From positions 1-61,329 of the IMG/VR virus record IMGVR_UViG_3300029825_000423: a stretch of DNA of 61,329 bases; one strand, given 5' to 3'. Below, one piece after another: positions 21,401-58,898 of this stretch. This DNA is from a virus. The notes beneath the pieces were generated by a model. That model saw only the letters and a program-made list of their open reading frames with translations, ran no database searches and had not been told where the DNA came from. The position numbers and the translations under genes are program-made. Position 1 is the stretch's first letter. Every line of letters begins with the position of its first letter.

Positions 21401-21401
21401 G

Positions 21402-21878: not shown

Positions 21879-21984
21879 GTTATCCCCCTAAATTAATTTT
21901 CTGTACACAGTATAACACACTTCAGGCATATAAAACTATCTAAGTTAATTATTTATACAAAGTGCAAACATTTAATACAGTTGA

Positions 21985-23777: not shown

Positions 23778-24017
23778 ATGGCAGTTTTTAAGAACAAAAA
23801 GAATGGGTACAAATACGAAACAAAAACGACGGTGCATAAAGTTCCGTCGACTGGTAAATATAGAGTGCAGGGCTACATTCAAGTTACATATCCAAATGGG
23901 GAATATGAGACAGTTACAAGCATGTCTTTAACTTTCAATATGAAGAAAGACGCGGACCGGGTAGCTTCGGAAACGCGGAAGAAATTTACTACGCTTGCGA
24001 AACAATACACAAAATGA
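23778..24017 (+). CDS. Small basic protein (family member)
   Basis: ATG follows GGTGATAAC. Contains LTFNMKKDADRVASETRKKF. Confidence 0.55.
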   Translation: MAVFKNKKNGYKYETKTTVHKVPSTGKYRVQGYIQVTYPNGEYETVTSMSLTFNMKKDADRVASETRKKFTTLAKQYTK

Positions 24018-25519: not shown

Positions 25520-25674
25520 GCAGTCACCGACAATTTAAGCCTTCTTCCGCATTTTGTACAATACGCGCACTTTCCCCTATAATTTCTAAATGTGTCTATT
25601 CTCTTTCCAAAACTTGTAAGTGTGAATGTTTTGTTCCCACACTTACAACTTATTTCAACATGATACGCTTTCAT
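25516..25674 (-). CDS. Zinc-ribbon mini-protein (52 aa)
   Basis: Translation is MKAYHVEISCKCGNKTF..KCAYCTKCGRRL. Its ATG overlaps the nrdD stop (ATGA). Confidence 0.55.
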   Translation of the reverse strand: MKAYHVEISCKCGNKTFTLTSFGKRIDTFRNYRGKCAYCTKCGRRLKLSVTA

Positions 25675-31961: not shown

Positions 31962-32048
31962 ATGAATCTGTTGTTAGCACTCGGAATATCGGCTGTGATA
32001 CTTATCGTCGGTGGAGCGATTATGACTTTACTCCGGGCGATGAAATGA
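31962..32048 (+). CDS. Hydrophobic mini-peptide (28 aa) coupled to integrase
   Basis: GGAGGAAGATTA-ATG precedes MNLLLALGISAVILIVGGAIMTLLRAMK. Its stop overlaps the integrase ATG. Confidence 0.35.
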   Translation: MNLLLALGISAVILIVGGAIMTLLRAMK

Positions 32049-32710
32049 ATTCTTTAGTACCATTCGGGGGCGGTGACCTACTCTTAAAAGAACACGTTGA
32101 TCACATTGAACTACACGAAGTAGGGAGCCTTAAACGTGCGTGTGATATTGCATACGAACGAAGCAAGCAAACTGAAAATTATAAATGGATCAGAGACAAA
32201 AACAAGCTTTTTCTCCATCTTATGTGGGCGACTGGTGCGAGGGTATCAGACGTTACGGAAATGAACACCACGAAAATAAATTACAGAGAAAAAACAATAA
32301 CCTTTCTGGTCCACAAGAGGAAAAGCAAGAAGGTTAAAACCGGGGGGGAATACTGGCACACAATTGGCTTGGATATGGAAACACTAACTATGTTAATGGA
32401 TTATATACAGACGTGGGAAATTAAAGGATTGCTCTTTCCTTCATTCAAAGGATCGGATAAGGCAATTACAAGGCAAGCAATAAACAAGCTTCTCAATGAG
32501 CTTACAGAACTTGTAGGAATGAGACGTATTCATCCCCACATGTTTCGCCATGGAATTGCCATGCACCTGCAAAGTCAGGGAGTGCCCGCCGAATTAATAG
32601 CTTACCACCTGGCACACAGTTCAACGGCAATTACCTTGAAGACATACGCAAGGATGGACGCGAAGCAGGAAAGAGCAATGTTTGAAAATCTGAATGTGAA
32701 ATTTTGGTAA
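32045..32710 (+). CDS. Tyrosine recombinase/integrase (Xer-like, 221 aa)
   Basis: Catalytic signature present: WATGARVSDV (Arg I), HPHMFRHGIAMHL (H-x-x-R), LAHSSTAITLKTYARM (His, Tyr). Confidence 0.9.
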   Translation: MNSLVPFGGGDLLLKEHVDHIELHEVGSLKRACDIAYERSKQTENYKWIRDKNKLFLHLMWATGARVSDVTEMNTTKINYREKTITFLVHKRKSKKVKTGGEYWHTIGLDMETLTMLMDYIQTWEIKGLLFPSFKGSDKAITRQAINKLLNELTELVGMRRIHPHMFRHGIAMHLQSQGVPAELIAYHLAHSSTAITLKTYARMDAKQERAMFENLNVKFW

Positions 32711-35289: not shown

Positions 35290-35616
35290 TTAATCTCCCC
35301 TCGTTATCTCTATAATTGCATACCCACCAATCGGCCTATAATACTCGAATTTCAGCTTAACACGCTCTCCTTTTTCTATTTCTATTGGGTCTGTGACAAT
35401 TACAGAGTAGTAGGTTTTATTTTCTCCAAAGTGCTCATTTTCAGGTGCAATATTAACAAACAAAGCTGTATGACTGTTGTATACACCCACGCTCTGCCAA
35501 TTGAGTTTTCCAGTCACATAATAATCATCATGAACTTCCGTTTCAGATGCGTACACATACGCACACACTGGCACGCACAACACCACACACAGTATAATAG
35601 CATGTAAAACCTTCAT
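35290..35616 (-). CDS. Secreted small beta-rich protein
   Basis: ATG 35616 forms an ATGA overlap with the acetyltransferase stop. Signal peptide is MKVLHAIILCVVLCVPVCAYVYA. Confidence 0.6.
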   Translation of the reverse strand: MKVLHAIILCVVLCVPVCAYVYASETEVHDDYYVTGKLNWQSVGVYNSHTALFVNIAPENEHFGENKTYYSVIVTDPIEIEKGERVKLKFEYYRPIGGYAIIEITRGD

Positions 35617-36053
35617 TTCCAAACCCCCTTGACTCTTTCGTTTTCTGGAACATCCTTCAACACAAGCGCGTGAGCTCCGATAACTGCACCATTCCCTACA
35701 CGGACATTTCCGAGAATCGAAGCATTGCAGCCGATAAACACGTTATCGCCAACCGCTATTTTTTCTGCAGGTCCTTCGGGATTAACTTTTCCCAAAGTTA
35801 CACCGTGCCTAATATCACAGTTTTTTCCTATCTCCGTTCCGGGATTGATACTGATACCGAACGGGTGACCGAAGAACGTTCCACGCGGGACGCTATCAAT
35901 GTCAACATCACAAAGAAAAACCAAACGCAACGGCAATCTCTTATTTAAACATTTGCATATGTCAATTGCGTTTTTTATTCGTTTTTTGGCTAAATTTTGA
36001 ATTACTTTTATCCTCGGTGTACGTTTTTTCAAGAACACGTTTGCATTTTTCAT
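35613..36053 (-). CDS. Hexapeptide-repeat (LbH) acetyltransferase
   Basis: Left-handed beta-helix repeats: IGKNCDIRHGVTLGK..VGDNVFIGCNASILGNVRVGNGAVIGAHALV. The N-terminus overlaps the upstream GT by about 90 nt, so the start is uncertain. Confidence 0.8.
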   Translation of the reverse strand: MKNANVFLKKRTPRIKVIQNLAKKRIKNAIDICKCLNKRLPLRLVFLCDVDIDSVPRGTFFGHPFGISINPGTEIGKNCDIRHGVTLGKVNPEGPAEKIAVGDNVFIGCNASILGNVRVGNGAVIGAHALVLKDVPENERVKGVWK

Positions 36054-36894
36054 AGTATTTTTTCTCCCTCTCCTGTATCATCGGAAGCGTCCATTTATTT
36101 TCGAGTATAAATTCAAGTATGTTATAAATACCGTCCCACCCACATACAGATACGTTAATAAATGGGCTTTCAAACTGTTTTTTCACATAGCATACGACCG
36201 GAACACCCATCGCAGCACACTCCATGGCAGAAACACCGTAATAACCTATACGCAATTGATCAATGTATAGGTCACATTTTGCCATTTCCAGCAAAATTTC
36301 TTCGTGTGGCTGTCCTGTAATTGTCTCATACTCGAAGTCGTACTTTTCTTTCAGCTCTGTAATTGCCTCCTCGATATACTTAGTGCCCTTGATTTCCGGA
36401 TTAGTCGGGCAGTGCAATATTCTGAACTTGTGTTCAGAATACGCTTCGCGCTCTTTCCACGGCAATTCCCAATCAATTGCCACGTTTGGTAACCACGTTG
36501 CGTTGGGTACATATTTCAGCAGGTCCGGAGTCGAAACATAAATTATGTCTGCAAGTCCGTTGTACCACGGCAATTGTTTTCCTCGCGCGTCCGATCCATG
36601 GTAATGTATCACAATTTCCTTTCCCAAAAGCTTGAATAATGCAATATCAAGCCCGTTGAAAATTGTTTTTTTGTGGAAATGGATTCTGTCATATTTCGGG
36701 CATAACCACAAATATTTAAACATGTTTTTTACGGACCCGAAATTCTTGCCCTGCAGCAAAAATTTGAAATCAACTGGATAATTTAATTTATTGCCGCAAG
36801 TTATTACGATATCCGACTTATCACAATTTCGTCTATCAATTTCTCTTAATACAACTGGCACGCCTGCAGTATCCCCAACATGAAGAACTTTCAT
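35962..36894 (-). CDS. GT-B fold glycosyltransferase (GT1/GT4-like)
   Basis: C-terminal domain reads KCDLYIDQLRIGYYGVSAMECAAMGVPVVCYV, an E-x7-E-like region. Operon partner of 36891. Confidence 0.8.
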   Translation of the reverse strand: MKVLHVGDTAGVPVVLREIDRRNCDKSDIVITCGNKLNYPVDFKFLLQGKNFGSVKNMFKYLWLCPKYDRIHFHKKTIFNGLDIALFKLLGKEIVIHYHGSDARGKQLPWYNGLADIIYVSTPDLLKYVPNATWLPNVAIDWELPWKEREAYSEHKFRILHCPTNPEIKGTKYIEEAITELKEKYDFEYETITGQPHEEILLEMAKCDLYIDQLRIGYYGVSAMECAAMGVPVVCYVKKQFESPFINVSVCGWDGIYNILEFILENKWTLPMIQEREKKYYEKCKRVLEKTYTEDKSNSKFSQKTNKKRN

Positions 36895-37964
36895 TTTTCA
36901 TTCTCCAAACTTTTATACAAGCTTAATAATTTTTCTTCTTCCCATCCAAACTGTGCGGTCAAGCATTTTCGTGAATATTCGGTACAATATGGAATTGCCT
37001 CTCTAATTGCCTCAACAGACTCTTCCACGTTATCTGGATCTATTAGAATCCCGTAACCTTCGTCTTCAATAAACTGATTTCCTTTCGTTCTGCTGGCAAT
37101 TACAGGAATCCCACTCATTATATATTCAAACGTCTTTGTGCTTCTCGCGGTCTCGTATCTATCGGTTTTCTCATATAGACAGAACCCCCACGAAACATCA
37201 TCAAGGAATTTATTTACCTCACAATGCGGAATTACGCCGCAGTAAGTTACGTGCTCACAGTTCTCGGGTATATCGGTTTTGTCAAATGCCATTCCAGCAA
37301 TCTTATACCGGACATCAGGCACATACTCAGACAATTTCCTGACAATTTCAACGCTTTGTGGGATCTTCCTAAGATTCATCATTCCAACATACCCGAAATT
37401 GCAACCTGACCTTACCTTTTTTGTATATCCCGTTGGATAATTATGGATTATCTGGTTATGTTTTACCTGATTACCCATTTCCTCATCTACTACAATTACC
37501 TTATCTGCAACGTTCTCCATCATAAATTTTTCTGAAACCGTTTCGACAAATTCAATAACATTTGCGAGTTTTTTAAGTCCTCTAGCGTCGAACCTCTCTC
37601 TTATCAGTCTCGGGTAATATTCGTGTCTGTCATAGATTACTTTAGAACCATATAAGAGCTTTAATGCGCTCCCTACGGCAAGAGAAGACGGTTCATGCAC
37701 ATGTACAATGTCTGGTTTCTGTACAAGTCCCGTAAGAAATGCCTTAAAGCAATTTGATATATGCTTTGAATACTTCAATTCGCCTGGATAACAGATTATA
37801 TTTATTCCATCTATCCCCCTATACGAATCTAACGCTTTCACAGCCGTTCCAAGTGCAATAACATTAACATCATATTTCCCACATTCAACAAGCGTTTTTG
37901 CTTCTTTGTGGTAAATTCTATGGTCATACGGTCCGTGTACAGTTGTAAGCATGGCAACTTTCAT
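36891..37964 (-). CDS. Glycosyltransferase family 4-like
   Basis: N-terminus is MKVAMLTTVHGPYDHRIYHKEAKTL. C-terminal domain is STKTFEYIMSGIPVIASRTKGNQFI. Confidence 0.85.
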   Translation of the reverse strand: MKVAMLTTVHGPYDHRIYHKEAKTLVECGKYDVNVIALGTAVKALDSYRGIDGINIICYPGELKYSKHISNCFKAFLTGLVQKPDIVHVHEPSSLAVGSALKLLYGSKVIYDRHEYYPRLIRERFDARGLKKLANVIEFVETVSEKFMMENVADKVIVVDEEMGNQVKHNQIIHNYPTGYTKKVRSGCNFGYVGMMNLRKIPQSVEIVRKLSEYVPDVRYKIAGMAFDKTDIPENCEHVTYCGVIPHCEVNKFLDDVSWGFCLYEKTDRYETARSTKTFEYIMSGIPVIASRTKGNQFIEDEGYGILIDPDNVEESVEAIREAIPYCTEYSRKCLTAQFGWEEEKLLSLYKSLENEK

Positions 37965-38305
37965 AATTTTTCCTCCATAAGTTTTTCGATTTTATCTAAC
38001 CGTTCATTCATATCATCAAACTCTTTTTTTATGGGGTTGCGGTGTTTCCAGGACTGCCTATTCGTATATTGAATCAGTGACGGATAAACGATTGAATAAT
38101 AAATACACCACCATGCAATAACCCCGGAAATGATAATTATCATCCCATAATATATTGGGATGTACACTTTTAAAAACCTATCGTAGAAAAGAGTCCACAC
38201 ACCAACAAAGTTTAGCATGTTAAATATGAAATTGGATTGGGTGATTATTTGGATTAATCCCCCAATCTGACCAGAATCAACATGGAATTGTCTCATGAAC
38301 ACCAA
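37961..38305 (-). CDS. Membrane protein (3 TM)
   Basis: Hydrophobic ORF with a 4-nt overlap with the GT4 gene. Possible start at ATG 38296. Confidence 0.6.
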   Translation of the reverse strand: MVFMRQFHVDSGQIGGLIQIITQSNFIFNMLNFVGVWTLFYDRFLKVYIPIYYGMIIIISGVIAWWCIYYSIVYPSLIQYTNRQSWKHRNPIKKEFDDMNERLDKIEKLMEEKL

Positions 38306-38656: not shown

Positions 38657-38959
38657 TCAATCTATCAAATCCCTGAAACTAAACCAGCCTTTCTTTATGC
38701 AGACCCAAACAAGATAACCCATTAAATCAACAACGTCGTTTTTTCTGAGTTCTTCACTGTTTCGTATCCGGTTTATTTTGTCATCGATCCTGGCATATAA
38801 CAAATCGCCTGATTCTGAATTTTTTGCAAAAACGTGAATAGGTTCGGATATGGAACTTCCGTACATACCGTCTTTCACATGCAAAAATTTAGAAAGTGAT
38901 TTGCACACCGAATTAATTTGCTTTCTTGTTGACAACGCTTCTGGATTGAATGTAGTCAT
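38657..38959 (-). CDS. DUF1599 (nucleotide-modification-associated domain 1)-like protein
   Basis: ATG follows AGGAGAGAACTCG. The pattern MYGSSISEP..GDLLYARIDDKINRIRN..NDVVDLMGYLVWVCI matches my recollection of DUF1599 (KxxDYG..R..DK..R..D..D...Y). No search was run. Confidence 0.5.
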   Translation of the reverse strand: MTTFNPEALSTRKQINSVCKSLSKFLHVKDGMYGSSISEPIHVFAKNSESGDLLYARIDDKINRIRNSEELRKNDVVDLMGYLVWVCIKKGWFSFRDLID

Positions 38960-39036
38960 CGAGTTCTCTCCTAACAAATTCTTTGTCTTTTTTTCTTCTA
39001 CTCCATGCATAATCTTCCCGATTTCTAAAACGGTTG

Positions 39037-39253: not shown

Positions 39254-39547
39254 TCAACACCTTTTGTTTCCGTGTCTGTACGGTCTCCCTTTGTTTATTT
39301 CATGCTTCTTTCTTATTTCTTCTTCAAGGTCAATTCCAAACGCTTCGCACATGTCCATAACTCTTATTACAACGTCTGCGAGTTCTTCTTTCATGTGTTC
39401 GTCTTCGTATTTCCTATACGCTTCAAGTGACTCGGACACTTCCGCATGAACCAGACACAATAGCTCTGGAATTCTTACGTTAGTGTCCCACCACCCATGA
39501 TTTATAGCGTTTTTGTGAATCTCTTTTTGCCATTCTGCAATTTCCAT
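39254..39547 (-). CDS. MazG-like all-alpha nucleoside-triphosphate pyrophosphohydrolase
   Basis: Contains EWQKEIHKNAINHGWW..LVHAEVSESLEAYRK..EELADVVIRVMDMCEAFGIDLEEEIRKKHEIN, with the E-x2-E .. E-x2-D metal-binding pattern. Confidence 0.8.
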   Translation of the reverse strand: MEIAEWQKEIHKNAINHGWWDTNVRIPELLCLVHAEVSESLEAYRKYEDEHMKEELADVVIRVMDMCEAFGIDLEEEIRKKHEINKGRPYRHGNKRC

Positions 39548-39557: not shown

Positions 39558-40991
39558 TCAATTATTTTTCTTTCGAATGTTAATCACCGGTTTATATTCA
39601 ATACTCCTACCAGCTTTACTTTCCTGCCGTTTCTTCTCTGCAATTTCATCGGAATAATACAACGGAGACGGAACTTTCATGCACCGTTCATCCGGACTGC
39701 AGACACAAAGACCCCGCAACGAAACCCCCTTCGGAAAACCCAAGTTATCAATAGCGTTCAGCCTTTCGCATGTCGGCACTTTCATACTTCTATAATAACT
39801 TTCGAATAAATTACTTTTTCTTGCATTCCATCTGTCAGCAAGCATGTTAAACCAATCGAACGCTTCTTCTTCTTCTATACCCATTTGCCCCAAGTATGAA
39901 CAGAACACGGCCAATGCCCTTGTCGCGCCTTCTCCGCATTCATCTAACTCAAACAAGTTTTTCATGCACGGTGCCCATTTTTCATAACCTATCGGTGTTT
40001 CTGACATCTCAACTTCTCTGCCGTCCATCCTGCTTATTGCAGATCTTCTGTTTTTGTAAGAGTGTTCGAGATACGGCTTAAAGACTTTGTTAAGAAATTC
40101 GGTCCCGTCGTCATACTCCATATACCACTTTTCCCCTTTGGCAATTACCGAGTCACTAAGCGGAATTGTCGCCTCTTCAAAGTCTATCTCGATCTTATCC
40201 GGATTCAACGGAACTACAGCATAATCTAAACTCTTATGTACGCTGTAGATTGTCTTAAACACTCTCTGAGAGCCGTTTAGTTGGTCAGGCTTAACTTTAC
40301 CTATATGTTGCGGAAACGCCTTAAAAAACGATTCTCGCATGTCTCCGATGAAGCAGTCAAAGGCGTCTAAGAAAGTCAGTAACATCATGTCCCATTCTTC
40401 GGAATCTCTGAATCTGTCGAAATACTTTTCAAATGCCTTATGATGCAACATTACATATATTCCACCACCCGAATACAAAACGTAAACAGAATTCGGCAAG
40501 TGTTCGCGAAGAATATTTACAAAATACTGCGCCATGTCTTCTACAGCTTGTTTTACATCAGGTGAATGAATATCACATCCATGTTCTTTGTCGATGTCAA
40601 TTCCAAGAGTGTACCCCATAGTATAAGCCCTGCTTAGCATCGGGCCATCGGCTTTGTCCACCTTCTTGTAATCCACGTCATAAATTTCTTTATCGAAAAC
40701 ATTTAAGGTCCAGTACAACGTCCGGCACTCTGTCACCGCATTAAAATAATCTTTTCTGCTCGACAGATCGATTTTTTTCTTTGCTTTCCTGCTTCCCGGG
40801 CGTAGGTTATACCAGTCCATTGAATCTTTTAGCTCCCCCGTTTCCCTGTCAACGTAAGCGCATGGAGTGAATTTCATTCCAGCCCTACTAAAATTCCCAT
40901 CAGTTGAAATCCTTGTAATTGCCTCGACAATTTCAGGACGTTTATAATGTTCTCGTATATCTTTCTGATTAAGCACATTCCCCACCCACAA
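39558..40991 (-). CDS. Archaeo-eukaryotic primase (PriS-like catalytic domain fused to Cys-rich C-terminal domain)
   Basis: Motif I is LGIDIDK and motif II is YSGGGIYVMLHH. The C-terminal region has several Cys (PCMKN, DECGEG, CERL, CVCSPDERC) that could bind a metal or Fe-S cluster. The start is TTG 40991 or GTG 40976. Confidence 0.75.
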   Translation of the reverse strand: MWVGNVLNQKDIREHYKRPEIVEAITRISTDGNFSRAGMKFTPCAYVDRETGELKDSMDWYNLRPGSRKAKKKIDLSSRKDYFNAVTECRTLYWTLNVFDKEIYDVDYKKVDKADGPMLSRAYTMGYTLGIDIDKEHGCDIHSPDVKQAVEDMAQYFVNILREHLPNSVYVLYSGGGIYVMLHHKAFEKYFDRFRDSEEWDMMLLTFLDAFDCFIGDMRESFFKAFPQHIGKVKPDQLNGSQRVFKTIYSVHKSLDYAVVPLNPDKIEIDFEEATIPLSDSVIAKGEKWYMEYDDGTEFLNKVFKPYLEHSYKNRRSAISRMDGREVEMSETPIGYEKWAPCMKNLFELDECGEGATRALAVFCSYLGQMGIEEEEAFDWFNMLADRWNARKSNLFESYYRSMKVPTCERLNAIDNLGFPKGVSLRGLCVCSPDERCMKVPSPLYYSDEIAEKKRQESKAGRSIEYKPVINIRKKNN

Positions 40992-45039: not shown

Positions 45040-45678
45040 TCACCCCAATAATGTATTTATCGTGTCATAATCGCTTTCTCTAAGGTGCGCACAAGCGATA
45101 TAATGATAAATCCACCCGGGCATTACTCCGACTTTTTCAGCGACATATTCAAGCAGTTTGTAAGCTCCGTACATATCGCTTGGAATTGCGATACAACATT
45201 CATTTGAACGGAAGTAATCGATTGCGTCAAGTCGTCCATTTCTTATAATGAACTGCAGTGAAGCCCAGCAAGGCTTTTCGTTTTCCGTGAAATTGTCACA
45301 CGGTTGAAATATCGGCATATACGCACGCCTAGTGTTCGGGTCTGTTTTCAAGAGCTCAATTATTCTGTCAAGCTGTTTCGATCTCCTTAGTCTTTCCCCG
45401 TATGCGTAATCGAAAGCGTCCCCTTTTTTCATAGCGATATGGCAGATTAAAAGGCCCTGTGCAAAGTCGTAAGCCTGACGTTCGACGGATTTTTCGGCTT
45501 TGAGATTGCCGGACATGACAATTACCTCGAGTCCGATAATTTCCCGTGTAACTTCCCCTCGCTGATCTACGATTCTTTCCCCATTGTTCCAGATCTCTCT
45601 TACGATTTTTTCTCTTGCGTCGGTTATGTCCTTCGCAATTATTCTGTTTTGGCTTGATGAAAAAACACGATGAGACAT
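45040..45678 (-). CDS. Thymidylate-synthase-fold pyrimidine C5 (hydroxy)methylase; predicted cytosine-specific
   Basis: By-eye alignment to E. coli ThyA: YGERLR / DPNTRRAYMPIFQP (DPDSRRIIVSAWN), EKPCWASLQF (APCHAFFQF, catalytic Cys), YFRSNE (YQRSCD), IPSDMYG (LPFNIAS, Asn177 replaced by Asp), ACAHL (GDTHL). The start sits at junction GTGAGGCAATTACAATG. Confidence 0.75.
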   Translation of the reverse strand: MSHRVFSSSQNRIIAKDITDAREKIVREIWNNGERIVDQRGEVTREIIGLEVIVMSGNLKAEKSVERQAYDFAQGLLICHIAMKKGDAFDYAYGERLRRSKQLDRIIELLKTDPNTRRAYMPIFQPCDNFTENEKPCWASLQFIIRNGRLDAIDYFRSNECCIAIPSDMYGAYKLLEYVAEKVGVMPGWIYHYIACAHLRESDYDTINTLLG

Positions 45679-45891: not shown

Positions 45892-46596
45892 TTAGTTCAT
45901 TAATTTAGGCGCCATCATATACCAGACGGCCATGTTTTCATTAATCATTTTTACAATCATAGGCAAATCAGCCCCATAAGAAATCTCAACTTCTCCTTCA
46001 AATAGTGAAAGTGTCCTGATGTAAGATTCTGCATACATCGAAGCGGTTTTATTGAAGTTTCCACCCACATTAACAGGGAACTTAAAAGAGTGCCCCAACT
46101 CAGATTTTGCCTTAAATGTCACGGTGTCATTTTCAGTTTCAATTACAACTTCCCCGCCTACGATCTTAATACCCTTCAGTGCCGACCTGACGAATTCCGT
46201 GTCAATGTCAAACGTCACAGTAAACGGAATAGTTGGAATTCTGCATGTACGAATACCGTTAACGTCGAGCAAAGGCAATTCAAACGTCATCCCATCAAAT
46301 GATATCTGAATTCTACCATCTAGTTGATCGAGCGTGACTTCCGACAATTTCCCAGCAGACCCAATGATTTCATTTAATTTGACGAGATCAACACCAAGCA
46401 ACGCACCGTCGCCGCATTCATACTCAATAAACGCAGTCTTGTTAATGGTTACATCCATCACGGCCACGCTTGCTTCGTCTATAATCCGAGAATGGATGTT
46501 TTCTTTCGTTATCTCCAAACGCGCATCGTTCCCAACTTCCATAAGCATTTTAACGAACTTCTTAAGATCGTTTGCCATTAGAGCAATTTTATACAT
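45892..46596 (-). CDS. pcn: PCNA sliding clamp homologue 1
   Basis: 234 aa, PCNA-like throughout: FVKMLMEVGNDARLEITKENIHSRIIDEASVAVMDVTI..GVDLVKLNEII, with a C-terminal MMAPKL (compare LAPRV). Confidence 0.8.
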   Translation of the reverse strand: MYKIALMANDLKKFVKMLMEVGNDARLEITKENIHSRIIDEASVAVMDVTINKTAFIEYECGDGALLGVDLVKLNEIIGSAGKLSEVTLDQLDGRIQISFDGMTFELPLLDVNGIRTCRIPTIPFTVTFDIDTEFVRSALKGIKIVGGEVVIETENDTVTFKAKSELGHSFKFPVNVGGNFNKTASMYAESYIRTLSLFEGEVEISYGADLPMIVKMINENMAVWYMMAPKLMN

Positions 46597-47484: not shown

Positions 47485-47850
47485 TCACACTTTGATATTC
47501 ACCATGGATTCAAATTCTGGATGAGCTCGCATAATCGCTACAGCAAATTCGTAATTAAGTTCATCGAATTCAAGTTCTTTGAACACCTTATTTATTCCAA
47601 ACGGAAGCGGTATGGTCAAAGCCCCACGTACTTCAATTAAACCAAGCTCTTCATGAAAAGCCATCTCGTCTTCCAATTGCATTTCGCCCGGACACTGGGT
47701 TTTTGCGTAATCACCCGTCACGAGTGCAAAATAAACATGCCCCAGTGCAGTTATTCGAATACCACCGTTTTCTTTTTCTTCAAGCAAGCCATTATCTGAA
47801 AATTTAATGTCAAATGGTCCGGTTACTACTCCCCCATTAATCATAACCAA
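47485..47850 (-). CDS. Hypothetical protein (121 aa)
   Basis: ORF in an operon. Its stop lies in junction GTGAGGCAATTACATGG. Confidence 0.55.
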   Translation of the reverse strand: MVMINGGVVTGPFDIKFSDNGLLEEKENGGIRITALGHVYFALVTGDYAKTQCPGEMQLEDEMAFHEELGLIEVRGALTIPLPFGINKVFKELEFDELNYEFAVAIMRAHPEFESMVNIKV

Positions 47851-48607
47851 TCAACTCCTTTTCTACTAAAACGTCTATTATATGTCTGTCATAAGTGAGA
47901 TTTTCAACCCACTGCCCCTTTATCGAGTCAAGGCAAGTACAAACATATTCCGTTTTCAATCCAATCTTCTTTTCTACCTGCAGAGTCACGTCTATTGTAT
48001 GTTGAACTTTCATTGAAAGTGCCGGGACTTCGCCAATTACCTTATCTCCCCTGTACAGGTCTTTCATCTGGCCAGTTACAATAAAGAGACCATCGTTTTC
48101 CTCTGCCCAACCAATCCCGCCTTCGATGAAAGCCCGTTCGACGTCGTTCATTGCCCCCCATTCTTCAGGCATTGGGTTGTCTCTATCGGGGTGTAACATT
48201 CTCCAATACTCCAAACCCATGTTATTGCGAAGAATCGGAGTTGCCCCGTCATAAATCAGAACGTCGAAATCACTTCTTTCAAGAATATTATTTATAATAT
48301 TGTCCTTCAAGTTAAGGAAGCTCTTAAGATAATCAGGTCCGTTCTTAAGAACAATCTTCATGTCTCTTGACGTTATTTTACCCACTTTTGTTATGTCGGT
48401 CTTCGATTCTTCTTTCCTGAGCATCACGGGGATTATTTCGAATCTGTCCGCGACTTCGGGAAAGAGAAGTTTTACTGTTTTTTCGGTTTTGTTTTCGAAA
48501 TCAAGAACAACCGCTTTTAGCTCAAGATCGTTTACGAGTTTGCACACACCGTATGTTTTACCTGTGCCAGTTGTGCCAGATACAGAAATTGAGTTAGTTA
48601 GTTTCAT
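47837..48607 (-). CDS. AAA_24/Sak4-like RecA-core ATPase
   Basis: Walker A is VSGTTGTGKTYG and the Walker B-like segment is DVLIYDGATP. Size and layout resemble phage Sak4-type recombination ATPases. Confidence 0.7.
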   Translation of the reverse strand: MKLTNSISVSGTTGTGKTYGVCKLVNDLELKAVVLDFENKTEKTVKLLFPEVADRFEIIPVMLRKEESKTDITKVGKITSRDMKIVLKNGPDYLKSFLNLKDNIINNILERSDFDVLIYDGATPILRNNMGLEYWRMLHPDRDNPMPEEWGAMNDVERAFIEGGIGWAEENDGLFIVTGQMKDLYRGDKVIGEVPALSMKVQHTIDVTLQVEKKIGLKTEYVCTCLDSIKGQWVENLTYDRHIIDVLVEKELIGYD

Positions 48608-49377
48608 TATACCGCCCTGATAACCGAATCATCCCCAACTCTAGGAGCACATAGCATCACATAATTTTCTGACTTCTCGCCGTTCCCATCTATTCTCACA
48701 GGGTTATCGACGTTTATACTCACAGTGCACGTTTTAACGAGTTTCCCCAGTGCTTTCATGTGTTTTCCAGTGAGGATATCAATAGAAAACATAGATCTCT
48801 GTTCATATCCAGGGGAGACAAAGTTACTGATTTTATTTCTCAGTTCAACTATTACGTTATCTCCATACAACACATGATCGGCAATTACAATATTATTCCC
48901 GAATGCCCCAATTACCTCAAGATCAGATATCAATTCCTTGTAACATATTTCGAATGACGTTTTAAATTCGATTTTCGGAATTCTTGGTATTCTATCATCG
49001 GGTTCAATTGGAATCGCGAACGTTGCGTCAACACATGTAAACACCGCACGTTTTCTATCGTCCCCACCTTCAACACTTCCATACAGATTTTTCGGCTTTT
49101 CTGGATCAACTTTCTCGAGCGTTACGAAATTACCACGCAGTTTTTTAACGACACGTTCCAGTTTGCGGACATCTACCGTTATGTCCGTATCAAGCGGTAC
49201 ATTATATTCACGGAAAGCGGTCTTTGGAATTGTCGCACCAAATATAAACACGTTTGCTGGATCAACCGTAAAAATTCTCATTTCATCTGGCCGAAGACAC
49301 ATTGTAACTTCATCTCTCATGTTTGCAAGAACACCAAGCAGGTTTTTAAAATAGCTAAGATCCATTGTAAATATCAT
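48607..49377 (-). CDS. PCNA sliding clamp homologue 2 (divergent)
   Basis: ATG follows GGGGGAAAACAA. The protein reads FKNLLGVLANMRDEVTMCLRPDEMRIFTVDPANV..ITVDVRKLERVVKKL.. with a C-terminal YVMLCAPRVGDD, matching the archaeal PCNA LLAPRVEE end. Confidence 0.7.
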   Translation of the reverse strand: MIFTMDLSYFKNLLGVLANMRDEVTMCLRPDEMRIFTVDPANVFIFGATIPKTAFREYNVPLDTDITVDVRKLERVVKKLRGNFVTLEKVDPEKPKNLYGSVEGGDDRKRAVFTCVDATFAIPIEPDDRIPRIPKIEFKTSFEICYKELISDLEVIGAFGNNIVIADHVLYGDNVIVELRNKISNFVSPGYEQRSMFSIDILTGKHMKALGKLVKTCTVSINVDNPVRIDGNGEKSENYVMLCAPRVGDDSVIRAV

Positions 49378-49411
49378 TTGTTTTCCCCCTAAAAACATTT
49401 ATTTTGGGGTG

Positions 49412-50164
49412 TTACTCCCCAAGAATCCCTTCGACGAACCGATACTTTCCGTCAGGTGATTTTTCAAGAACGCCGTCCGTAACAAGGGCATTCAGGTATT
49501 TTGTCTTGTTTGGCATTGCCGTATACTGCCTCTTGACATTTTCAGGTGCTTCAAGATTTTTTGCGTAGTCATTCGTCGCTTTTATTGTGTTGGGCAGTGT
49601 GAACGGCTCACTTCCAAATTCTTTCAGGCACTCGAAATACCCTGCCTTTATCTCTTCCTCGTTAATCGGGACTTCGGGGGCAGGTGCCTTGACCTCAGTA
49701 ATTGCGGCAGAAGCACTCCCCCCGACCCCGGCAACTGTCCAGACATCGAAGCTTATTATCTTTGGCTGTTTTACAAGCTGCCCGTTCACGTTTACAAGCT
49801 CAGTATCTGTCTTGCTTGCAAAGCTCTTATGCTCAACTTCGAAACTCACTGTCTGCCCGCGTAGGTCCGGGGCAAATGCAACTTCCATTCTATCTACATC
49901 AATATCAATTGACACACCGACATTGACAAGTGACTCGAAGAACCTGTAAGCGTTGCTCCCATACTTCGGTGACGGACTTCCTTCATAATCTACCCAGTCC
50001 TTGTACTTAAGAGCGATCTTAAGGGCTGGATCCTCGGTTGTTGCAATTACAAGGCTTACGTCCTCCGTGAAATCGTTTTCCTCTAAAAAGTAGTCCGTTA
50101 CCCGATCTGTAAACGATTCGTCTCTTCTGAATTTTTTTCCTGGTTCGAGCTTAAGCTTTGCCAT
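49412..50164 (-). CDS. Hypothetical protein (250 aa; possible ssDNA-binding/recombination partner by position)
   Basis: Long ORF with RBS and no recognisable motif. The role is a guess from context only. Confidence 0.6.
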   Translation of the reverse strand: MAKLKLEPGKKFRRDESFTDRVTDYFLEENDFTEDVSLVIATTEDPALKIALKYKDWVDYEGSPSPKYGSNAYRFFESLVNVGVSIDIDVDRMEVAFAPDLRGQTVSFEVEHKSFASKTDTELVNVNGQLVKQPKIISFDVWTVAGVGGSASAAITEVKAPAPEVPINEEEIKAGYFECLKEFGSEPFTLPNTIKATNDYAKNLEAPENVKRQYTAMPNKTKYLNALVTDGVLEKSPDGKYRFVEGILGE

Positions 50165-51749: not shown

Positions 51750-52148
51750 ATGGAAGGAATAAACAAAAAAACAATGAAAAAATTAACAACGAAAAAAGGA
51801 CGGGAAGAATTCAAGAACGAAGTTTCTGTTGATGTTTTCGATAAACTTGCTAAGAAAAGATTCACGGACCAGGAAGCAACGAAAAATTACAAGTTCATGA
51901 GCATTTACAAAAACACGAGGGCCGCACTGATAAATGCCGGTGTCATGACCACAAAAGAAATCATAGAGATTGAAAGGAAGTACAGAGAATCAGACGCGCC
52001 GGAAGAAGAGGGCAACGGATGGATAGAAGAAGTTCCGGAAGAGGTTCTTTCTATAATCGTTCTTGCGCTGGGATGTTATGTTGAAAATACCGTTCTTGTT
52101 GAGAACAAGGAAAGAGCACAGGAGATTCTCAAGGCAATTGAAGGGTGA
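51750..52148 (+). CDS. Hypothetical protein
   Basis: 132-aa ORF with RBS AAGGAGG. Confidence 0.6.
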   Translation: MEGINKKTMKKLTTKKGREEFKNEVSVDVFDKLAKKRFTDQEATKNYKFMSIYKNTRAALINAGVMTTKEIIEIERKYRESDAPEEEGNGWIEEVPEEVLSIIVLALGCYVENTVLVENKERAQEILKAIEG

Positions 52149-52234
52149 TTAATTCACTCTTTAAAATAATTATTTTAGGAAGTAGAAAAGTTTATTAACC
52201 TTTAAAGCTTATTTTTTGCAGGGAGTTGATATAT

Positions 52235-53824
52235 ATGGACTTAATAATTGATCCAGAATTTAGAGATCTGATTCCTCCACTGACTGAAGAGGAATATAAC
52301 AGTCTTGAAGAAAATCTTTTAACTAACGGGTTTAACCCTGCCTTCCCTGTAATTGTCTGGAAAGGACAGAACATTATAGTGGATGGGCATAACCGTTACG
52401 GAATTTGCCAGAAACACGGAATTGCCTTTGATTACATCGAGCAGGAGTTCGCTTCGAGGTACGATGTTAAACAAGAAATGTACAAGATACAGTTTGATAG
52501 AAGAAACATGAATAGTAGAACTAAAACTTATCTTGTAGGTAAAAGATATTTAATGGAAAAAATGGAAGAAGGAAATCCAAATGGGTTCGGTGCAATCAAC
52601 CAACGGGCGCAAAATGCGCCCGTTGGTAGAACAAGAGAAAAAATAGCTGCACAACTAGGAATAAATCACTCGACTGTGCTAAGAGCAGCCGAATTTGCGC
52701 TTGCGGTAGATAAAATCGTCTCTGTAACTGGAATAAAAGTAAACGATATCCTAGTCGGAAAGATAAAAGACCCGATGGATGATATTAAAGACCTCGCTAG
52801 AAACCTAGATGATGTAATAAAAGACGCAATTTACAGGGTATTATCCGGTGAAAACCTAACTTTAAAAATGGCTCTCGCGGCAATTACAAGAGAAGAACTC
52901 GAAAGAAAAACAAGAGAAGCCGAAAAGAAAAGAAAGCAAATGGAAGAAGAATTTAAAAAATCAAGAGAAGAAGAAGACCAGAAAGAAAGGGAAAGACTCA
53001 GACAAGAAAGAGAAAACAAACTCGCGCAGGAAAGAGAACGTATAGAAAAGGAGAAAGAAGAACAAGAACAGCGCAGACGCGCAGAGATCGAAAAAGAAAT
53101 TGAAAAGAGAAGGAAAGAAGCAGAGGAAAGAGCAAAGCACGCAGAAGAACGAGAAAAGTTAAGAAAGGATGCAGAAGAACATGAAAGAATCGAAAAAGCA
53201 AAACTCGAAGCTGAAATTAAAAGACTACAAGAAATCAAACAAAAGAAACTTGAATCAGCTATGCTTGAACAAAAACGAATGGATGAAGAAATACTCAGAA
53301 AGGCAAGGATTGAACGGGAAAAGCAAGACAGAGAAATAATTGAAAAGACAGTAAAGGTCAGCGTTCCAGTAACAGATTACGACCAGTACATAAAAGCGGC
53401 TTATACAATAATGGGGGAAATAACACTTAATGCTTGCAGACCAAAAAAGGCAGACAACGCAGACAACATTTACATAATAAACACTCAAATCGTACACAAT
53501 GATCCAGAAACACTTAATCAAAATTGGATTGGTAAAGTGTGGCTTGACCTGCTTGATTCAGAAAAAGATTCAAAGTGTTACATTGAGAAATTGGTATCTC
53601 GGTTTGTCGAAGGGGGAATAACTGAAGCCTTTGTGATTGCCAGAAACACAACTGATTCCGAATGGTTTAAGCTCTGTTCACAGAAAGCAAGCGCGGTTGT
53701 ATTTCCAACAAAGACAATGACAGGAAAGTTAAAAAGCCATGCTCTTATTTACTTCGGGGACAAGGCAGAAACCTTTATGAAAGAATGTGAAAAGTTCGGA
53801 TGGGGGACAATATTAAAAAAATAA
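52235..53824 (+). CDS. ParB N-terminal domain / HTH / long charged coiled coil / degenerate Dam-like domain fusion
   Basis: ParB/Srx-type segment DLIPPLTEEEYNSLEENLL..IVDGHNRY, then HTH REKIAAQLGINHSTVLR. About 150 aa of E/K/R-rich coil follow. The C-terminal NWIGKVWLDLLDS..FVIARNTTDSEWF..ALIYFG resembles phage Dam (W.G..W.NPPYS..PARTDT.WF), but with NPPY replaced by DLLD. Confidence 0.75.
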   Translation: MDLIIDPEFRDLIPPLTEEEYNSLEENLLTNGFNPAFPVIVWKGQNIIVDGHNRYGICQKHGIAFDYIEQEFASRYDVKQEMYKIQFDRRNMNSRTKTYLVGKRYLMEKMEEGNPNGFGAINQRAQNAPVGRTREKIAAQLGINHSTVLRAAEFALAVDKIVSVTGIKVNDILVGKIKDPMDDIKDLARNLDDVIKDAIYRVLSGENLTLKMALAAITREELERKTREAEKKRKQMEEEFKKSREEEDQKERERLRQERENKLAQERERIEKEKEEQEQRRRAEIEKEIEKRRKEAEERAKHAEEREKLRKDAEEHERIEKAKLEAEIKRLQEIKQKKLESAMLEQKRMDEEILRKARIEREKQDREIIEKTVKVSVPVTDYDQYIKAAYTIMGEITLNACRPKKADNADNIYIINTQIVHNDPETLNQNWIGKVWLDLLDSEKDSKCYIEKLVSRFVEGGITEAFVIARNTTDSEWFKLCSQKASAVVFPTKTMTGKLKSHALIYFGDKAETFMKECEKFGWGTILKK

Positions 53825-53833
53825 ATTGGGAGA

Positions 53834-54997
53834 GTGGAACAATTGACAGTATTTAAAAAAATAATCGGAAGTAGATGTATTGTAATTGTGGTTGGCAATC
53901 ACAAAGGGGGTTGCGGAAAAACAACCACATCTTTTGGAATTGGGGTAAATGCCAGTAAACAAGGTAAAAGAGTACTTTTCATAGACAATGACCAACAGGG
54001 GACGCTAGGAAAGCAATTCAAGATAGACGGAAACAACAAGAAATACAAAGACCATAGATTTTCAAAGATATACGAATCAATGTCAAACATAACCGGAGAA
54101 ATACCAGTAGTACCTTACACAATACACTTTAACAAAAACACAGGAGGTTCAATATCAATTCTGCTTGGAGACGCAGACTTAAAAGATATAGTTGAAAAAG
54201 CAGAAGAGTACTTCGGCGGAGAGGCGATTGTAACAGAAAAGTTCAGGACAATTATGAATGTTTACATGCAATACTTCGATTATATAATATTCGACACCAC
54301 ACCAATTGTAGACAAAATAAAAAGCTGTAAACACTCTTTGAGTATTGCTAACAATGTATTCATTCCATTTGATGAAATAGACGCAGTTGATGAAATAAAT
54401 CAGACCAGAACCGCAATAAAAGCAAACAGCAAACATCAGCCTAACATAAGGTTTGTATGCACAAAATACACGGTTGACTACATCGAGGAAGCAAGAGAAT
54501 TTAACAGAAGATGTTTAGAAAATAAACTTCCAGTTCCAGAGAAGCCAGTAAAATTTAAACATTATCCTTGGACACCAGGCAGAGACGAGAAACGATGTAC
54601 CAATTACAGGTTTATGCTAAAAACATTTCCTAATAACATGTGTAAAATCGGAATCCCATTTAAAGTAGACATCGAGAGGCACACGTACTTAGGATCAAGC
54701 AAAGAAAACAGAGCAATAATAGACGAAATGTGCAAAGATCTTTTACTTTATGCGTCTTCAAGTGCAAAGGAATTTTGTGAAAACCTATGTGATGATGATG
54801 TTTGGAGTAAAAAACTTGATATGTTAAACGGTTACGTTGGAATTGTTCGAGATATGAAAATAGAAAAAATGGACATTGGATTAAACGAAGTTCTCGGTAC
54901 TACATTCGATGAAGGAAACTATTTACATGTAGAATTTGAAAAAGAAGCAGTAAACGAAAGAGCTATTTTAGAACGTAGAGCTAGATTTGATAGGTGA
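53834..54997 (+). CDS. parA: ParA/Soj-type partition ATPase
   Basis: Deviant Walker A is VVGNHKGGCGKTTTS, followed by FIDNDQQGT and IIFDTTP. Confidence 0.85.
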   Translation: MEQLTVFKKIIGSRCIVIVVGNHKGGCGKTTTSFGIGVNASKQGKRVLFIDNDQQGTLGKQFKIDGNNKKYKDHRFSKIYESMSNITGEIPVVPYTIHFNKNTGGSISILLGDADLKDIVEKAEEYFGGEAIVTEKFRTIMNVYMQYFDYIIFDTTPIVDKIKSCKHSLSIANNVFIPFDEIDAVDEINQTRTAIKANSKHQPNIRFVCTKYTVDYIEEAREFNRRCLENKLPVPEKPVKFKHYPWTPGRDEKRCTNYRFMLKTFPNNMCKIGIPFKVDIERHTYLGSSKENRAIIDEMCKDLLLYASSSAKEFCENLCDDDVWSKKLDMLNGYVGIVRDMKIEKMDIGLNEVLGTTFDEGNYLHVEFEKEAVNERAILERRARFDR

Positions 54998-55093
54998 GTG
55001 ACAAACACTCTAAATAAAATTTTTGAAAACAGTAAATATTAAATAAGTTCAGTGACATATATAACAGTTACCTAAAAAAGATTTGTGGAGAGA

Positions 55094-55111
55094 GGGGGGA
55101 CTTAACCCCCC
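55094..55111 (+). terminator. GC hairpin after parA
   Basis: GGGGGG-acttaa-CCCCCC. Confidence 0.4.
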
Positions 55112-55193
55112 GAATGGAGACAAAACAAATGACGAAGCACGTCTTATAATATATTATATGTCGTTCTTCCTATAAATAACTTATTGTTGGGAC

Positions 55194-55949
55194 ATGGATA
55201 CTGTTAGTAAAATCGGAGGGAGCATGAGCAAGAATGAAATATTTAAACAGGAAGCACAGATTTCAAACGAAGAATTTGAACAAGACATTGAGATATTCTA
55301 CCGTGGGATTGTCGGGATTACAAAGAAGTTAGGGCAAACATCAAGCGACGGCGCAAGATGGGTATTCGATATGTCATTTAGAGGAAAGAGAAGAGAAATC
55401 ACCATTGATAACGTCGCGCTTATGATGGGGCCAACCGCCTTTAACAACCTGTTTAAGTCATGGTTCGGTATTCAGTTGCCGTACCTACTCCGGAGAAAGC
55501 CAGCGAAGGGTGACGTCAATTACTGGGACAAGTTTCAGCAGGTAATTGAAGAAATGTGTACCGAAGAAGATCCAGAAGATAGTACGGAATGGATTGAGGC
55601 AAGCAGGTTAATAGAGAATATAGCAAAGTTCAACATAACAGATGACAAAAAGGCATGGTATGATACAACTTCTTCCGATAGGTGCCTTTTGAGAACGGAA
55701 GATAAAGATGGCGTGGTACACTATTGCGTTAAGCCAGACTGTGTGGCCACTGTAATGAAAGACATTGGAATAAAAATACCAATCGGTAAAATGGGAGAGA
55801 CTTTAAACATTCGAAACATGAAAAGGAAAACAAACCCGGCAATCAGGGTAGGACAGAAGGTAACGAAAGCATGGTGGATTACGGCGGAGTGTATAGACGC
55901 AGTTACACCAGACGAAAACGACGACGATAGCGACAATGTGAATTTGTAA
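55194..55949 (+). CDS. Hypothetical protein adjacent to iterons (candidate iteron/centromere-binding protein by position)
   Basis: 251-aa ORF, with a likely start at ATG 55224 after GGAGGGAGC. Its stop codon lies inside the first GTAAC iteron. The function is inferred from position only. Confidence 0.6.
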   Translation: MDTVSKIGGSMSKNEIFKQEAQISNEEFEQDIEIFYRGIVGITKKLGQTSSDGARWVFDMSFRGKRREITIDNVALMMGPTAFNNLFKSWFGIQLPYLLRRKPAKGDVNYWDKFQQVIEEMCTEEDPEDSTEWIEASRLIENIAKFNITDDKKAWYDTTSSDRCLLRTEDKDGVVHYCVKPDCVATVMKDIGIKIPIGKMGETLNIRNMKRKTNPAIRVGQKVTKAWWITAECIDAVTPDENDDDSDNVNL

Positions 55950-56220
55950 CTGGGTGTAACGGGGTGTAACCGGTGTGTAACGGGTCTTGTAACGGGTCTA
56001 AAATCGACTTTGTAATTGCCACACAACGACAACGGGGGAACTCAGAACACTACTTTTTTGTGTGTTTTTTCTCCTTGTAACGCGCGCACGGGGGGTAAAA
56101 AATTTTTTCCTGACCCCCCGTTACACCCGTTACACCGGTTACATTCGACTGAAAGTATTTTCCCGCTGTCGAAAATTTGTAACGGGTCTGGAGGCATCGA
56201 CCCGTTACACCCCGTTACAA
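55944..56220. repeat. Iteron cluster: 12 copies of TGTAACGGG / CCCGTTACA (origin of replication or partition centromere)
   Basis: Five direct copies have GTAAC at 55946, 55956, 55966, 55977 and 55989 (10-12 bp spacing), plus one at 56077. Three inverted copies have GTTAC at 56120, 56129 and 56138. A perfect 11-bp inverted pair lies at 56178-56188 / 56199-56209, with one more copy at 56214. An A6T6 tract flanked by G6/C6 lies at 56090-56119. Confidence 0.85.
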
Positions 56221-58310: not shown

Positions 58311-58898
58311 GTGAAAGCTGGAGATGTCTTAAGAGTCTTGCACATCTCAAGACCAACACTATACAGATATGCCGAAGCTGGATACATTGATAGAAATAAG
58401 CTTCCAAATGGGAAGTATGATTATGTTGATGAATCCGTTTATGCATTTCTAAATAAAGATGTTAAACGCAAACATGTAATTTATTGCAGGGTTTCGACTT
58501 CAAAACAGAAAGCGGATTTGGAAAATCAGGTTGAGTTTCTCAAAAGCTGGTCTTTCAACTCAGGCATAAAAATTGATGCAGTCTACAAAGATGTTGCATC
58601 TGGCATTTCATTTGAGAAAAGAAAAGAATTCTTTGAAATGCTTGATGAGATACTTGATTTCAAGGTTGAAACTGTAATAATTGCATACAAAGACCGATTA
58701 AGCAGAATAGGGTTTGAGTTGTTTTCAAACTTGTTTGCTAAGTTCGGGACAAAAATAATAGTTGTTTCAGAAGCAGGAAATAAGAAATTAGATTCAGAAG
58801 AAATCTTTGAGGAAATAATTTCTTTGTTGCACTGCTACAGTATGAAGCACTACAGCAAACGAAAAAACCCAAAATCATTGGAAATCGAGGTGGAATAA
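58311..58898 (+). CDS. tnpA: IS607-type serine recombinase transposase
   Basis: MerR-like HTH VLRVLHISRPTLYRYAEAG plus resolvase catalytic motif VIYCRVSTSKQKADLENQ. Confidence 0.9.
   Translation: MKAGDVLRVLHISRPTLYRYAEAGYIDRNKLPNGKYDYVDESVYAFLNKDVKRKHVIYCRVSTSKQKADLENQVEFLKSWSFNSGIKIDAVYKDVASGISFEKRKEFFEMLDEILDFKVETVIIAYKDRLSRIGFELFSNLFAKFGTKIIVVSEAGNKKLDSEEIFEEIISLLHCYSMKHYSKRKNPKSLEIEVE

Follow-up and report, generated by a model that had tools for sequence, protein, structure and literature searches.

The window analysed here is the virus record IMGVR_UViG_3300029825_000423 of IMG/VR, over positions 1 to 61,329 (in nucleotides, nt), and the gene in question lies at positions 45040..45678 on its minus strand. 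This open reading frame (ORF) starts at ATG and encodes a predicted ThyA-fold pyrimidine-nucleotide C5 one-carbon transferase of 212 amino acids (aa). A TTG upstream, at 45696, is an unlikely start; the N-terminus MSHRV is common to all relatives compared. The protein matches Pfam family PF00303 (Thymidylat_synt) with E=7.9e-17 and the thymidylate synthase (TS) families of PHROG with 1.9e-29 at best. Its best NCBIfam match is TIGR03283 (thymidylate synthase, methanogen type) with 128.3 bits, which does not reach the equivalog cutoff of 174.55 bits. The nucleophile is Cys137 in the motif EKPCWASLQF, equivalent to Cys146 of Escherichia coli ThyA. Arg117 and Arg118 in TRRAY correspond to E. coli Arg126 and Arg127, and Arg157 and Ser158 in FRSNE to Arg166 and Ser167; all of these residues are invariant across the aligned relatives. 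Further equivalents are Tyr93 (E. coli Y94), His198 (H207), Glu134 (L143) and Arg200 (Y209). The original prediction, made from the letters of the DNA alone, had described a thymidylate-synthase-like ORF with these Cys, RR and RS motifs; all are present and the ORF stands. The predicted product has the ThyA fold with the full nucleophile and phosphate-binding apparatus. It carries Asp at the position that reads the base, and it probably acts on deoxycytidine monophosphate (dCMP) in place of deoxyuridine monophosphate (dUMP), the substrate of TS.

The residue in question is Asp168 in the motif IPSDMYG, at the position of E. coli Asn177. The segments FRSNECCIAIPSD and, from E. coli, QRSCDVFLGLPFN match residue for residue by simple spacing. 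In profile-profile alignments (hhalign), for which the ThyA-like protein and 12 relatives served as query, Asp168 pairs with Asp179 of T4 gp42, with Asn177 of E. coli ThyA and with the Asn of the cellular TS of Methanosphaera cuniculi (99.7% probability, full length). In phmmer alignments to PDB 9IQC and to MilA it stands opposite the Asp of these enzymes. The reference sequences of E. coli ThyA and T4 gp42 are identical to PDB 1AOB and 1B49. At this site the protein has the Asp of T4-type enzymes (D179) and lacks the Asn of thymidylate synthases. An Asp here had first been proposed by eye; the three profile alignments and phmmer agree on it and replace that alignment. Two further substitutions named at the time, of Asp169 by Glu and of Gln165 by Phe, are found as Glu160 and Phe156.

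An exhaustive search of 1.84 billion representative proteins with a hidden Markov model returned 11,296 homologs, of which the best 150 were analysed. Homologs were aligned to the family profile, and a table of key residues and a neighbour-joining tree were made for 118 representatives. Clade A consists of the ThyA-like protein and 54 other representatives, all of 202-229 aa except one of 413 aa. Asp occupies the N177 site in 55 of 55 members and the L143 site is Glu or Asp in every one. Tyr209 is replaced throughout (55/55) by Arg, Ile, Lys or Leu (Arg200 in the window protein), a replacement that co-varies perfectly with Asp177. His207 is kept, and the D169 site holds Asp or Glu. Clade B, the short archaeal-type TSs, has Asn at the N177 site in 59/59 and almost always keeps Tyr209; its L143 site is mostly acidic (Glu or Asp). 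Named members are the M. cuniculi TS WP_095609220, the TSs of Hodarchaeota and Wukongarchaeota metagenome-assembled genomes (MAGs), an Aenigmatarchaeota TS and the 'methanogen-type thymidylate synthase' QGH71215 of Methanobacterium virus PhiF1. Clade C holds T4 gp42 and MilA-like proteins of roughly 300 aa. In these the N177 site holds Asp, the L143 site is acidic (Asp or Glu) in 11 of 12 and Asn in the other, and His-x-Tyr is present wherever the segment was aligned. Judged by its residues and the tree, clade A, so far uncharacterised, appears to be sister to the short methanogen-type TSs. Asp177 together with the loss of Tyr209 on a short scaffold gives a simple rule separating it from the true methanogen-type enzymes, with which current annotation pipelines lump it. 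Archaeal TSs sharing the Asp had been named beforehand as a finding that would speak against a switch of specificity; the archaeal TSs of known cellular origin that were sampled, and that of PhiF1, carry Asn.

Members of clade A are so far met only on virus-like contigs from metagenomes. All clade A contexts that were fetched are contigs of this kind, rich in small unannotated ORFs. Two close relatives are among the viral contigs of IMG/VR; the scan that recovered them also gave four distant relatives. The lineage includes the contigs k127_10581, IMGVR_UViG_3300038313_000213 and IMGVR_UViG_3300029822_000863. No homolog above ~31% identity was found in 50,697 deposited phage genomes with three different clade A queries, and a 15-kb part of the window had no megablast match among such genomes. 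When contigs of GTDB genomes were scanned for peptide patterns specific to the clade, only two distant bacterial ThyA-family loci came up, a result that is uninformative for the wider clade. As an observation apart, many Asn-type archaeal short TSs occur in fused proteins of ~470 aa (P0027, P0030, P0045, P0053 and others). One member of such a cluster, from Aenigmatarchaeota, is annotated as thymidine monophosphate (dTMP) kinase, which suggests TS-Tmk fusions in DPANN archaea.

The AlphaFold model of the ThyA-like protein has a pLDDT (predicted local distance difference test) of 80.5 and a pTM (predicted template modelling score) of 0.80. Foldseek against the PDB places 9IQU and 9IQC (the dCMP hydroxylase AfhB of phage HY126) on top, followed by thymidylate synthases interleaved with MilA. 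In a viral structure library the best match to the model is the gp42 dCMP hydroxymethylase of an Acinetobacter phage. The ratio of nonsynonymous to synonymous substitution rates (dN/dS) is 0.02-0.07 in comparisons with three relatives; the gene is under strong purifying selection. The two AfhB structures, determined with dCMP and flavin adenine dinucleotide, are the top PDB matches by sequence as well as by structure, and they are likewise short-type ThyA proteins with Asp177 and without the hydroxyl of Tyr209. They raise the reading of the protein as a flavin- and O2-dependent dCMP 5-hydroxylase, that is, a 5-hydroxy-dCMP synthase like RB69 gp48 or HY126 AfhB. These synthases are marked by D169N (PMC13326640), which is absent: the site holds Glu160 here. 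Their chemistry needs O2 (PMC13326640), whereas the element carries the anaerobic ribonucleotide reductase NrdD and its host is apparently a strictly anaerobic methanogen. Identity to AfhB is 26-27%. The reading was rejected on the D169 signature and the O2 requirement, and is considered highly improbable.

The case for a cytosine nucleotide starts from established enzymology. Asn177 sets the specificity for uracil, and E. coli N177D and Lactobacillus casei N229D are turned into dCMP methylases (PMC8670742, PMC13326640). Asp179 of T4 gp42 plays the reciprocal role, its change in D179N switching the preference to dUMP (PMC8670742, PMC13326640). Among the ThyA-family members whose substrates are documented in these two papers, those for cytosine nucleotides (T4 gp42, MilA, RB69 gp48, DLP3 gp80 and that of HY126) carry Asp, and E. 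coli ThyA, which takes dUMP, carries Asn (PMC13326640, PMC8670742). In a metavirome association, positions 177 and 147 were the top two residues separating the ThyA homologs of cytosine-modified from those of unmodified contigs, position 177 being mostly Asp on the former and mostly Asn on the latter (PMC8670742). This enzymology and this association point to a cytosine nucleotide as the most likely substrate. The enzyme of clade A would, with moderate confidence, add a one-carbon group to dCMP and not convert dUMP to dTMP, and would be a dCMP C5-hydroxymethylase or C5-methylase. The specificity switch originally proposed for the enzyme holds up in that the Asp is invariant across the whole clade. 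As to the product, hydroxymethyl is slightly favoured over methyl. An acidic residue at L143 correlates with a hydroxymethyl in place of a methyl product and is proposed to admit water, a correlative rule (PMC13326640). The window protein has Glu134 there, and so does not bear the signature that would be expected of a dCMP methyltransferase (Asp177 combined with a bulky, hydrophobic side chain at L143).

Several observations weigh against this reading, and some of them bear on its main rival, an ordinary viral methanogen-type thymidylate synthase. In such an enzyme the Asp would be tolerated or compensated, and the conversion of dUMP to dTMP would boost the dTMP supply alongside NrdD (25671..27947, minus strand; Pfam NRDD 3.9e-158), which shows that the element invests in nucleotide supply in general and lives anaerobically. 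The acidic L143 residue has no discriminating value in this lineage, since most Asn-type archaeal TSs carry Glu or Asp there as well. The Tyr209 equivalent hydrogen-bonds the 3'-OH of deoxyribose in TS and gp42. This Tyr, kept by T4 gp42, MilA and TS, is replaced in clade A, and the sugar or the substrate could therefore differ from dCMP; the clade-wide loss hints that the substrate or product is unlike those of gp42, MilA and AfhB, the enzymes characterised so far. Distant members of the clade adjoin dUTPase genes, as a true TS would, and also neighbour NrdG-like and glutaredoxin genes. Searches with Pfam and PHROG that covered every mid-sized ORF of the window found no deoxynucleoside monophosphate (dNMP) kinase. 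A scan for P-loop motifs found four ORFs, namely a UvrD helicase, a STAND-like NTPase, a site internal to a 1450-aa protein and a RadA-like protein at 47837..48607. The last, the only kinase-sized P-loop ORF, was considered for the missing kinase and discarded, as it folds as a RadA/Rad51 recombinase. The lack of a recognisable kinase had been noted from the start, and these scans bear it out.

The element also encodes a Dcm-type C5 cytosine DNA methyltransferase (29788..30741, plus strand; Pfam PF00145 1.1e-84, TIGR00675 298 bits against a cutoff of 100.65) and a tyrosine integrase (32045..32710). Both argue against complete replacement of cytosine before replication. A C5 methyltransferase would be pointless if every C5 were substituted, because the enzyme needs cytosines with a free C5. 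The tetranucleotide GGCC is depleted (observed/expected 0.53, z=-3.9) while other C-containing palindromes of four letters are not, which weakly suggests exposed cytosines. The absence of a kinase, the Dcm-type enzyme, the integrase and the depletion of GGCC together suggest that modification, if it takes place, affects only part of the cytosines or depends on conditions. Another possibility is that the enzyme has a role in nucleotide metabolism of a kind so far undescribed. For an ordinary TS, the methyltransferase and the integrase fit with unmodified DNA, the best curated match is TIGR03283, homology to the Methanosphaera TS is full-length, and NrdD and the dUTPase, NrdG-like and glutaredoxin neighbours are of the expected kind. 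However, the score lies below the equivalog cutoff, Tyr209 is lost throughout the clade, and every named cellular archaeal TS of the short type that was sampled, like the PhiF1 TS, keeps Asn against an Asp in 55 of 55 clade A proteins; documented Asp enzymes, moreover, use cytosine nucleotides (PMC13326640, PMC8670742). An ordinary TS is accordingly regarded as unlikely.

The neighbours most relevant to a dCMP-modifying enzyme lie downstream of it. A MazG-like all-alpha nucleoside triphosphate (NTP) pyrophosphohydrolase of 97 aa is encoded at 39254..39547 on the minus strand (Pfam MazG-like 5.8e-7 and MazG 6.9e-6; PHROG pyrophosphatase 2.9e-26). It had been recognised in the original prediction, and Pfam and PHROG agree. 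It is a candidate dNMP supplier, possibly a dCTPase. Next to it on the same strand is a conserved protein of 477 aa (39558..40991), between the HNH endonuclease gene and the MazG-like gene, for which neither Pfam, PHROG nor the PDB gave a match. The DxD and SGGG..H-like motifs seen by eye in its homologs recall primase-polymerases of the archaeo-eukaryotic type. The small protein u117b (38657..39010, minus strand) matches phrog_1485 (function unknown) with 3.6e-6. An ORF at 38657..38959 had been called DUF1599-like; this identity (DUF1599/Nmad1) was dropped for u117b, which has no Pfam match even at E<=10, no NCBIfam match and no PDB sequence match. The genes for MazG, the 477-aa protein, HNH and u117b are kept downstream of the ThyA-like gene in the close relatives L005, L013 and L014. 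A MazG-like gene was not seen in the fetched flanks of the distant clade A members. Homologs of u117b are found in the three close relatives and, as two copies, in L012, a distant locus of clade A; the protein therefore travels with the Asp-type ThyA. The two copies of L012 (6122..6415 and 7587..8225) flank a dUTPase gene. In the same locus an EcoRI-like methylase gene and a GmrSD_N-HNH (type IV restriction-like) gene adjoin the u117b/dUTPase region.

In L014, whose ThyA-like protein is 84% identical, a dCMP deaminase (16125..16568; PF00383 4.3e-24) lies between the MazG and u117b homologs, as does an ORF of 111 aa. This arrangement recalls T4, and the deaminase would complete a trio analogous to gp42, gp56 and cd. 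It also admits a further reading, in which the enzyme is a dCMP methylase in an alternative route to dTMP that bypasses dUMP: dCMP would be converted to 5-methyl-dCMP and then, by a deaminase, to dTMP. The position of the L014 deaminase inside the MazG/u117b module would fit such a route, and a preprint reports phage deoxycytidine deaminases that prefer 5-methylcytosine (bioRxiv 10.1101/2024.12.05.627091). No dCMP deaminase like that of L014 was found in the window, the L143 site is acidic and not hydrophobic, and no precedent was found in the literature. Very little probability is given to this route.

A block of glycan-type genes lies on the minus strand beyond u117b. It opens with a membrane protein of 114 aa with a strong transmembrane segment (37961..38305), whose gene end is overlapped by the start of a GT4 glycosyltransferase gene (36891..37964; Pfam GT4/GT1). 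The GT4 protein has a weak likeness to TuaH (teichuronic-acid) and exopolysaccharide glycosyltransferases. A GT-B-like protein of 310 aa (35962..36894) follows, with glycosyltransferase matches below threshold, and the block closes with a hexapeptide O-acetyltransferase (35613..36053; Pfam Hexapep). The acetyltransferase best matches CysE (serine O-acetyltransferase) and the exopolysaccharide-associated EpsC (~4e-22, below cutoff), and then the sugar acetyltransferases WcaB and NeuD. A GT2 fragment lies elsewhere in the element, at 60561..61220 on the minus strand, near the circular junction. The trio of membrane protein, GT4 and GT-B-like protein is 46-54% identical in L004, whose Asp-type ThyA-like protein is 39% identical to that of the window. 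The region fetched for L014, the close relative that keeps the Asp-type ThyA, MazG and u117b, yielded no homolog of the block. As the trio is better conserved in L004 than the ThyA-like gene itself and yet was not found in the fetched part of L014, an exchangeable envelope- or virion-glycan module is favoured over DNA glycosyltransferases. The most likely targets of the glycosyltransferases are glycans of the envelope or the virion, and not DNA. As a whole, the module is similar to cassettes for seroconversion or envelope glycans.

These genes had been seen as part of a full T-even-like pathway, in which a MazG dCTPase and a dCMP hydroxymethylase would lead to 5-hydroxymethylcytosine DNA, glycosylated (perhaps acetylated) by the adjacent GT-B enzymes. 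The Asp-type ThyA, MazG and the pair of GT4 and GT-B-like proteins do lie in one co-directional block, and the trio also accompanies the Asp-type ThyA of L004. Known phage DNA glycosyltransferases are, moreover, generic GT-B/GT4-like proteins too (PMC13326640). On the other side stand the membrane-protein gene that overlaps the GT4 start, the EpsC/WcaB-like polysaccharide acetyltransferase at the end of the block, the further GT2 elsewhere and the failure to find the block in L014; in addition, no dNMP kinase was found and a C5 methyltransferase is present. The GT-B glycosyltransferases originally placed at 35962..37964 fare differently, as GT4 at 36891..37964 is supported and the protein at 35962..36894 is GT-B-like only below threshold. 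With no kinase found, no profile match to DUF1599, a glycan-type block and a C5 methyltransferase, the T-even-like scheme of 5-hydroxymethylcytosine synthesis and glycosylation is for the most part unsupported in this element and is judged quite improbable.

The ThyA-like gene itself is part of a replication and recombination module, a minus-strand block that runs from ~51.5 kb to 34.2 kb. It includes PCNA-like genes at 45892..46596 and 48607..49398 (263 aa), both on the minus strand, with a PCNA_N Pfam match and phmmer matches to archaeal PCNA structures (E=3.7e-5). An ORF of 250 aa at 49412..50164, similar in size to the PCNA-like neighbours, has no PDB, PHROG or Pfam match and is a candidate for another such gene. 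At least two PCNA-like genes in one block could be a multi-subunit viral sliding clamp. The RadA/Rad51-like recombinase mentioned above (47837..48607, minus strand) has 256 aa and a P-loop and falls in no Pfam family. Its model has a pLDDT of 90, its top 50 Foldseek PDB matches are all RAD51, RadA, DMC1 or RecA, and the protein is kept in at least 26 metagenomic relatives. The module also has a Rad3-type helicase, the HNH endonuclease, the 477-aa protein and the MazG-like pyrophosphatase; an ERCC4/helix-hairpin-helix nuclease is weakly supported.

The first ~99 nt of the window (1..99) are repeated at 61231..61329, which marks the assembly as circular and the element, of ~61.2 kb, as complete. 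The window makes up nearly all of a contig of 61,357 bp from a fermentation metagenome. Its GC content is ~40%. An IS607-like unit on the plus strand consists of a serine recombinase (58311..58898) and TnpB (OrfB_IS605; 58900..60135). This TnpB is in the same cluster, at >=90% identity, as the transposase MDM7918823.1 of a Methanosarcina sp. MAG. The host is inferred to be an archaeon because of the PCNA, RadA and ERCC4-like genes and the kinship to methanogen TS, and is probably Methanosarcina, at which the TnpB cluster hints. No capsid, portal, terminase or tail gene was recognised in the window by Pfam and PHROGs; the element is called a virus because IMG/VR classifies relatives as such and because of its gene content. 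The plus-strand regions 1..24000 and 51750..56000 hold giant ORFs of 1234 aa (CarboxypepD_reg, DUF2341) and 1450 aa and an ArsA/ParA-like ATPase.

The reaction proposed for a dCMP-modifying enzyme in this setting is as follows. Cys137 would add to C6 of dCMP, and the one-carbon unit would come from a methylene-pterin carrier of the host, probably methylene-tetrahydrosarcinapterin or its tetrahydromethanopterin (H4MPT) counterpart. A cofactor of the H4MPT type is probable, given that the protein is akin to methanogen TS over its full length. Hydration of the exocyclic methylene intermediate would then give 5-hydroxymethyl-dCMP, which is slightly favoured; its reduction would give 5-methyl-dCMP. 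The further steps are more weakly suggested. The MazG-like pyrophosphatase, encoded 5.5 kb downstream, might feed the enzyme with dCMP from deoxycytidine triphosphate, host kinases might phosphorylate the product, and the replication machinery might incorporate it, so that part of the viral cytosines would be C5-substituted and host restriction blunted. It is proposed tentatively, as a possibility and not as the expected outcome, that clade A is a virus-specific family of dCMP C5-modifying enzymes dependent on pterins (H4MPT or tetrahydrosarcinapterin), by which viruses of Methanosarcina-type archaea would acquire 5-hydroxymethyl- or 5-methylcytosine at the nucleotide level.

DNA marks made by methyltransferases are also known in archaeal viruses. 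The base modification that a survey of archaeal tailed viruses deals with is the 7-deazaguanine pathway, and ThyX is the sole TS in its scheme of nucleotide pathways (PMC8651126). A description of an archaeal virus with a ThyA-type cytosine-modifying enzyme was not found in searches of the literature. The present locus would be the first sign that an archaeal virus modifies cytosine at the nucleotide level; if the reading is true, the pathway would be the first in Archaea to modify pyrimidines before replication. If clade A acts on dCMP, such modification extends to the viruses of methanogens, the reaction probably proceeds on methanopterin-type cofactors instead of folate, and a compact family of ~210 aa with a distinct signature joins the ThyA-fold pyrimidine modifiers. 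It would then also bear on the behaviour of such DNA in metagenomic sequencing and on archaeal restriction and CRISPR defences.

Among the known systems, the CMP 5-hydroxymethylase MilA (PDB 5B6D) shares the ThyA fold and the specificity Asp and is among the best PDB matches. It differs from the window protein in being a bacterial enzyme of ~320 aa that acts on a ribonucleotide in an antibiotic pathway, in keeping His-x-Tyr, and in a gene context unrelated to that of the window. The 5-hydroxy-dCMP synthases (RB69 gp48, DLP3 gp80 and HY126 AfhB; 9IQC/9IQU) share the short type, Asp177, the acidic L143 site and the lack of the Tyr209 hydroxyl; they carry D169N and use flavin and O2 (PMC13326640), in contrast to Glu160 and the anaerobic setting here. 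The enzyme of Enterococcus phage VPE25, of the clade C type, adjoins genes for dUTPase and a beta-glucosyltransferase, whereas the window has no convincing DNA glycosyltransferase. T4 gp42 (PDB 1B49/1B5E) has in common with the window protein the ThyA fold, the specificity Asp (D179), the RSN(D/E) motif and an acidic residue three before the catalytic Cys (D145, matched by Glu134). It is likewise viral and accompanied by an all-alpha NTP pyrophosphatase, the fold to which T4 gp56 belongs. Identity to gp42-type enzymes is ~27-29% (<=30% to the gp42 homologs of Straboviridae), and the two fall in separate clades. Enzymes of the gp42 type keep His-x-Tyr (H216 and Y218 in T4), whereas the window protein has His198 and Arg200. 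In T4, RB69 and DLP3 a dNMP kinase accompanies the enzyme (PMC13326640), while none was found in the window. Closest by sequence are the methanogen-type TSs (TIGR03283; WP_095609220, QGH71215), with a full-length hhalign probability of 99.7%. They share with the window protein the scaffold of ~210 aa, the Cys, RR and RS residues, Tyr94, His207 and the acidic L143 site, and probably the same pterin cofactor. In the methanogen-type enzymes the N177 site is Asn and Tyr209 is kept; the corresponding residues of the window protein are Asp168 and Arg200, its score does not reach the family cutoff, and it belongs to a separate clade.

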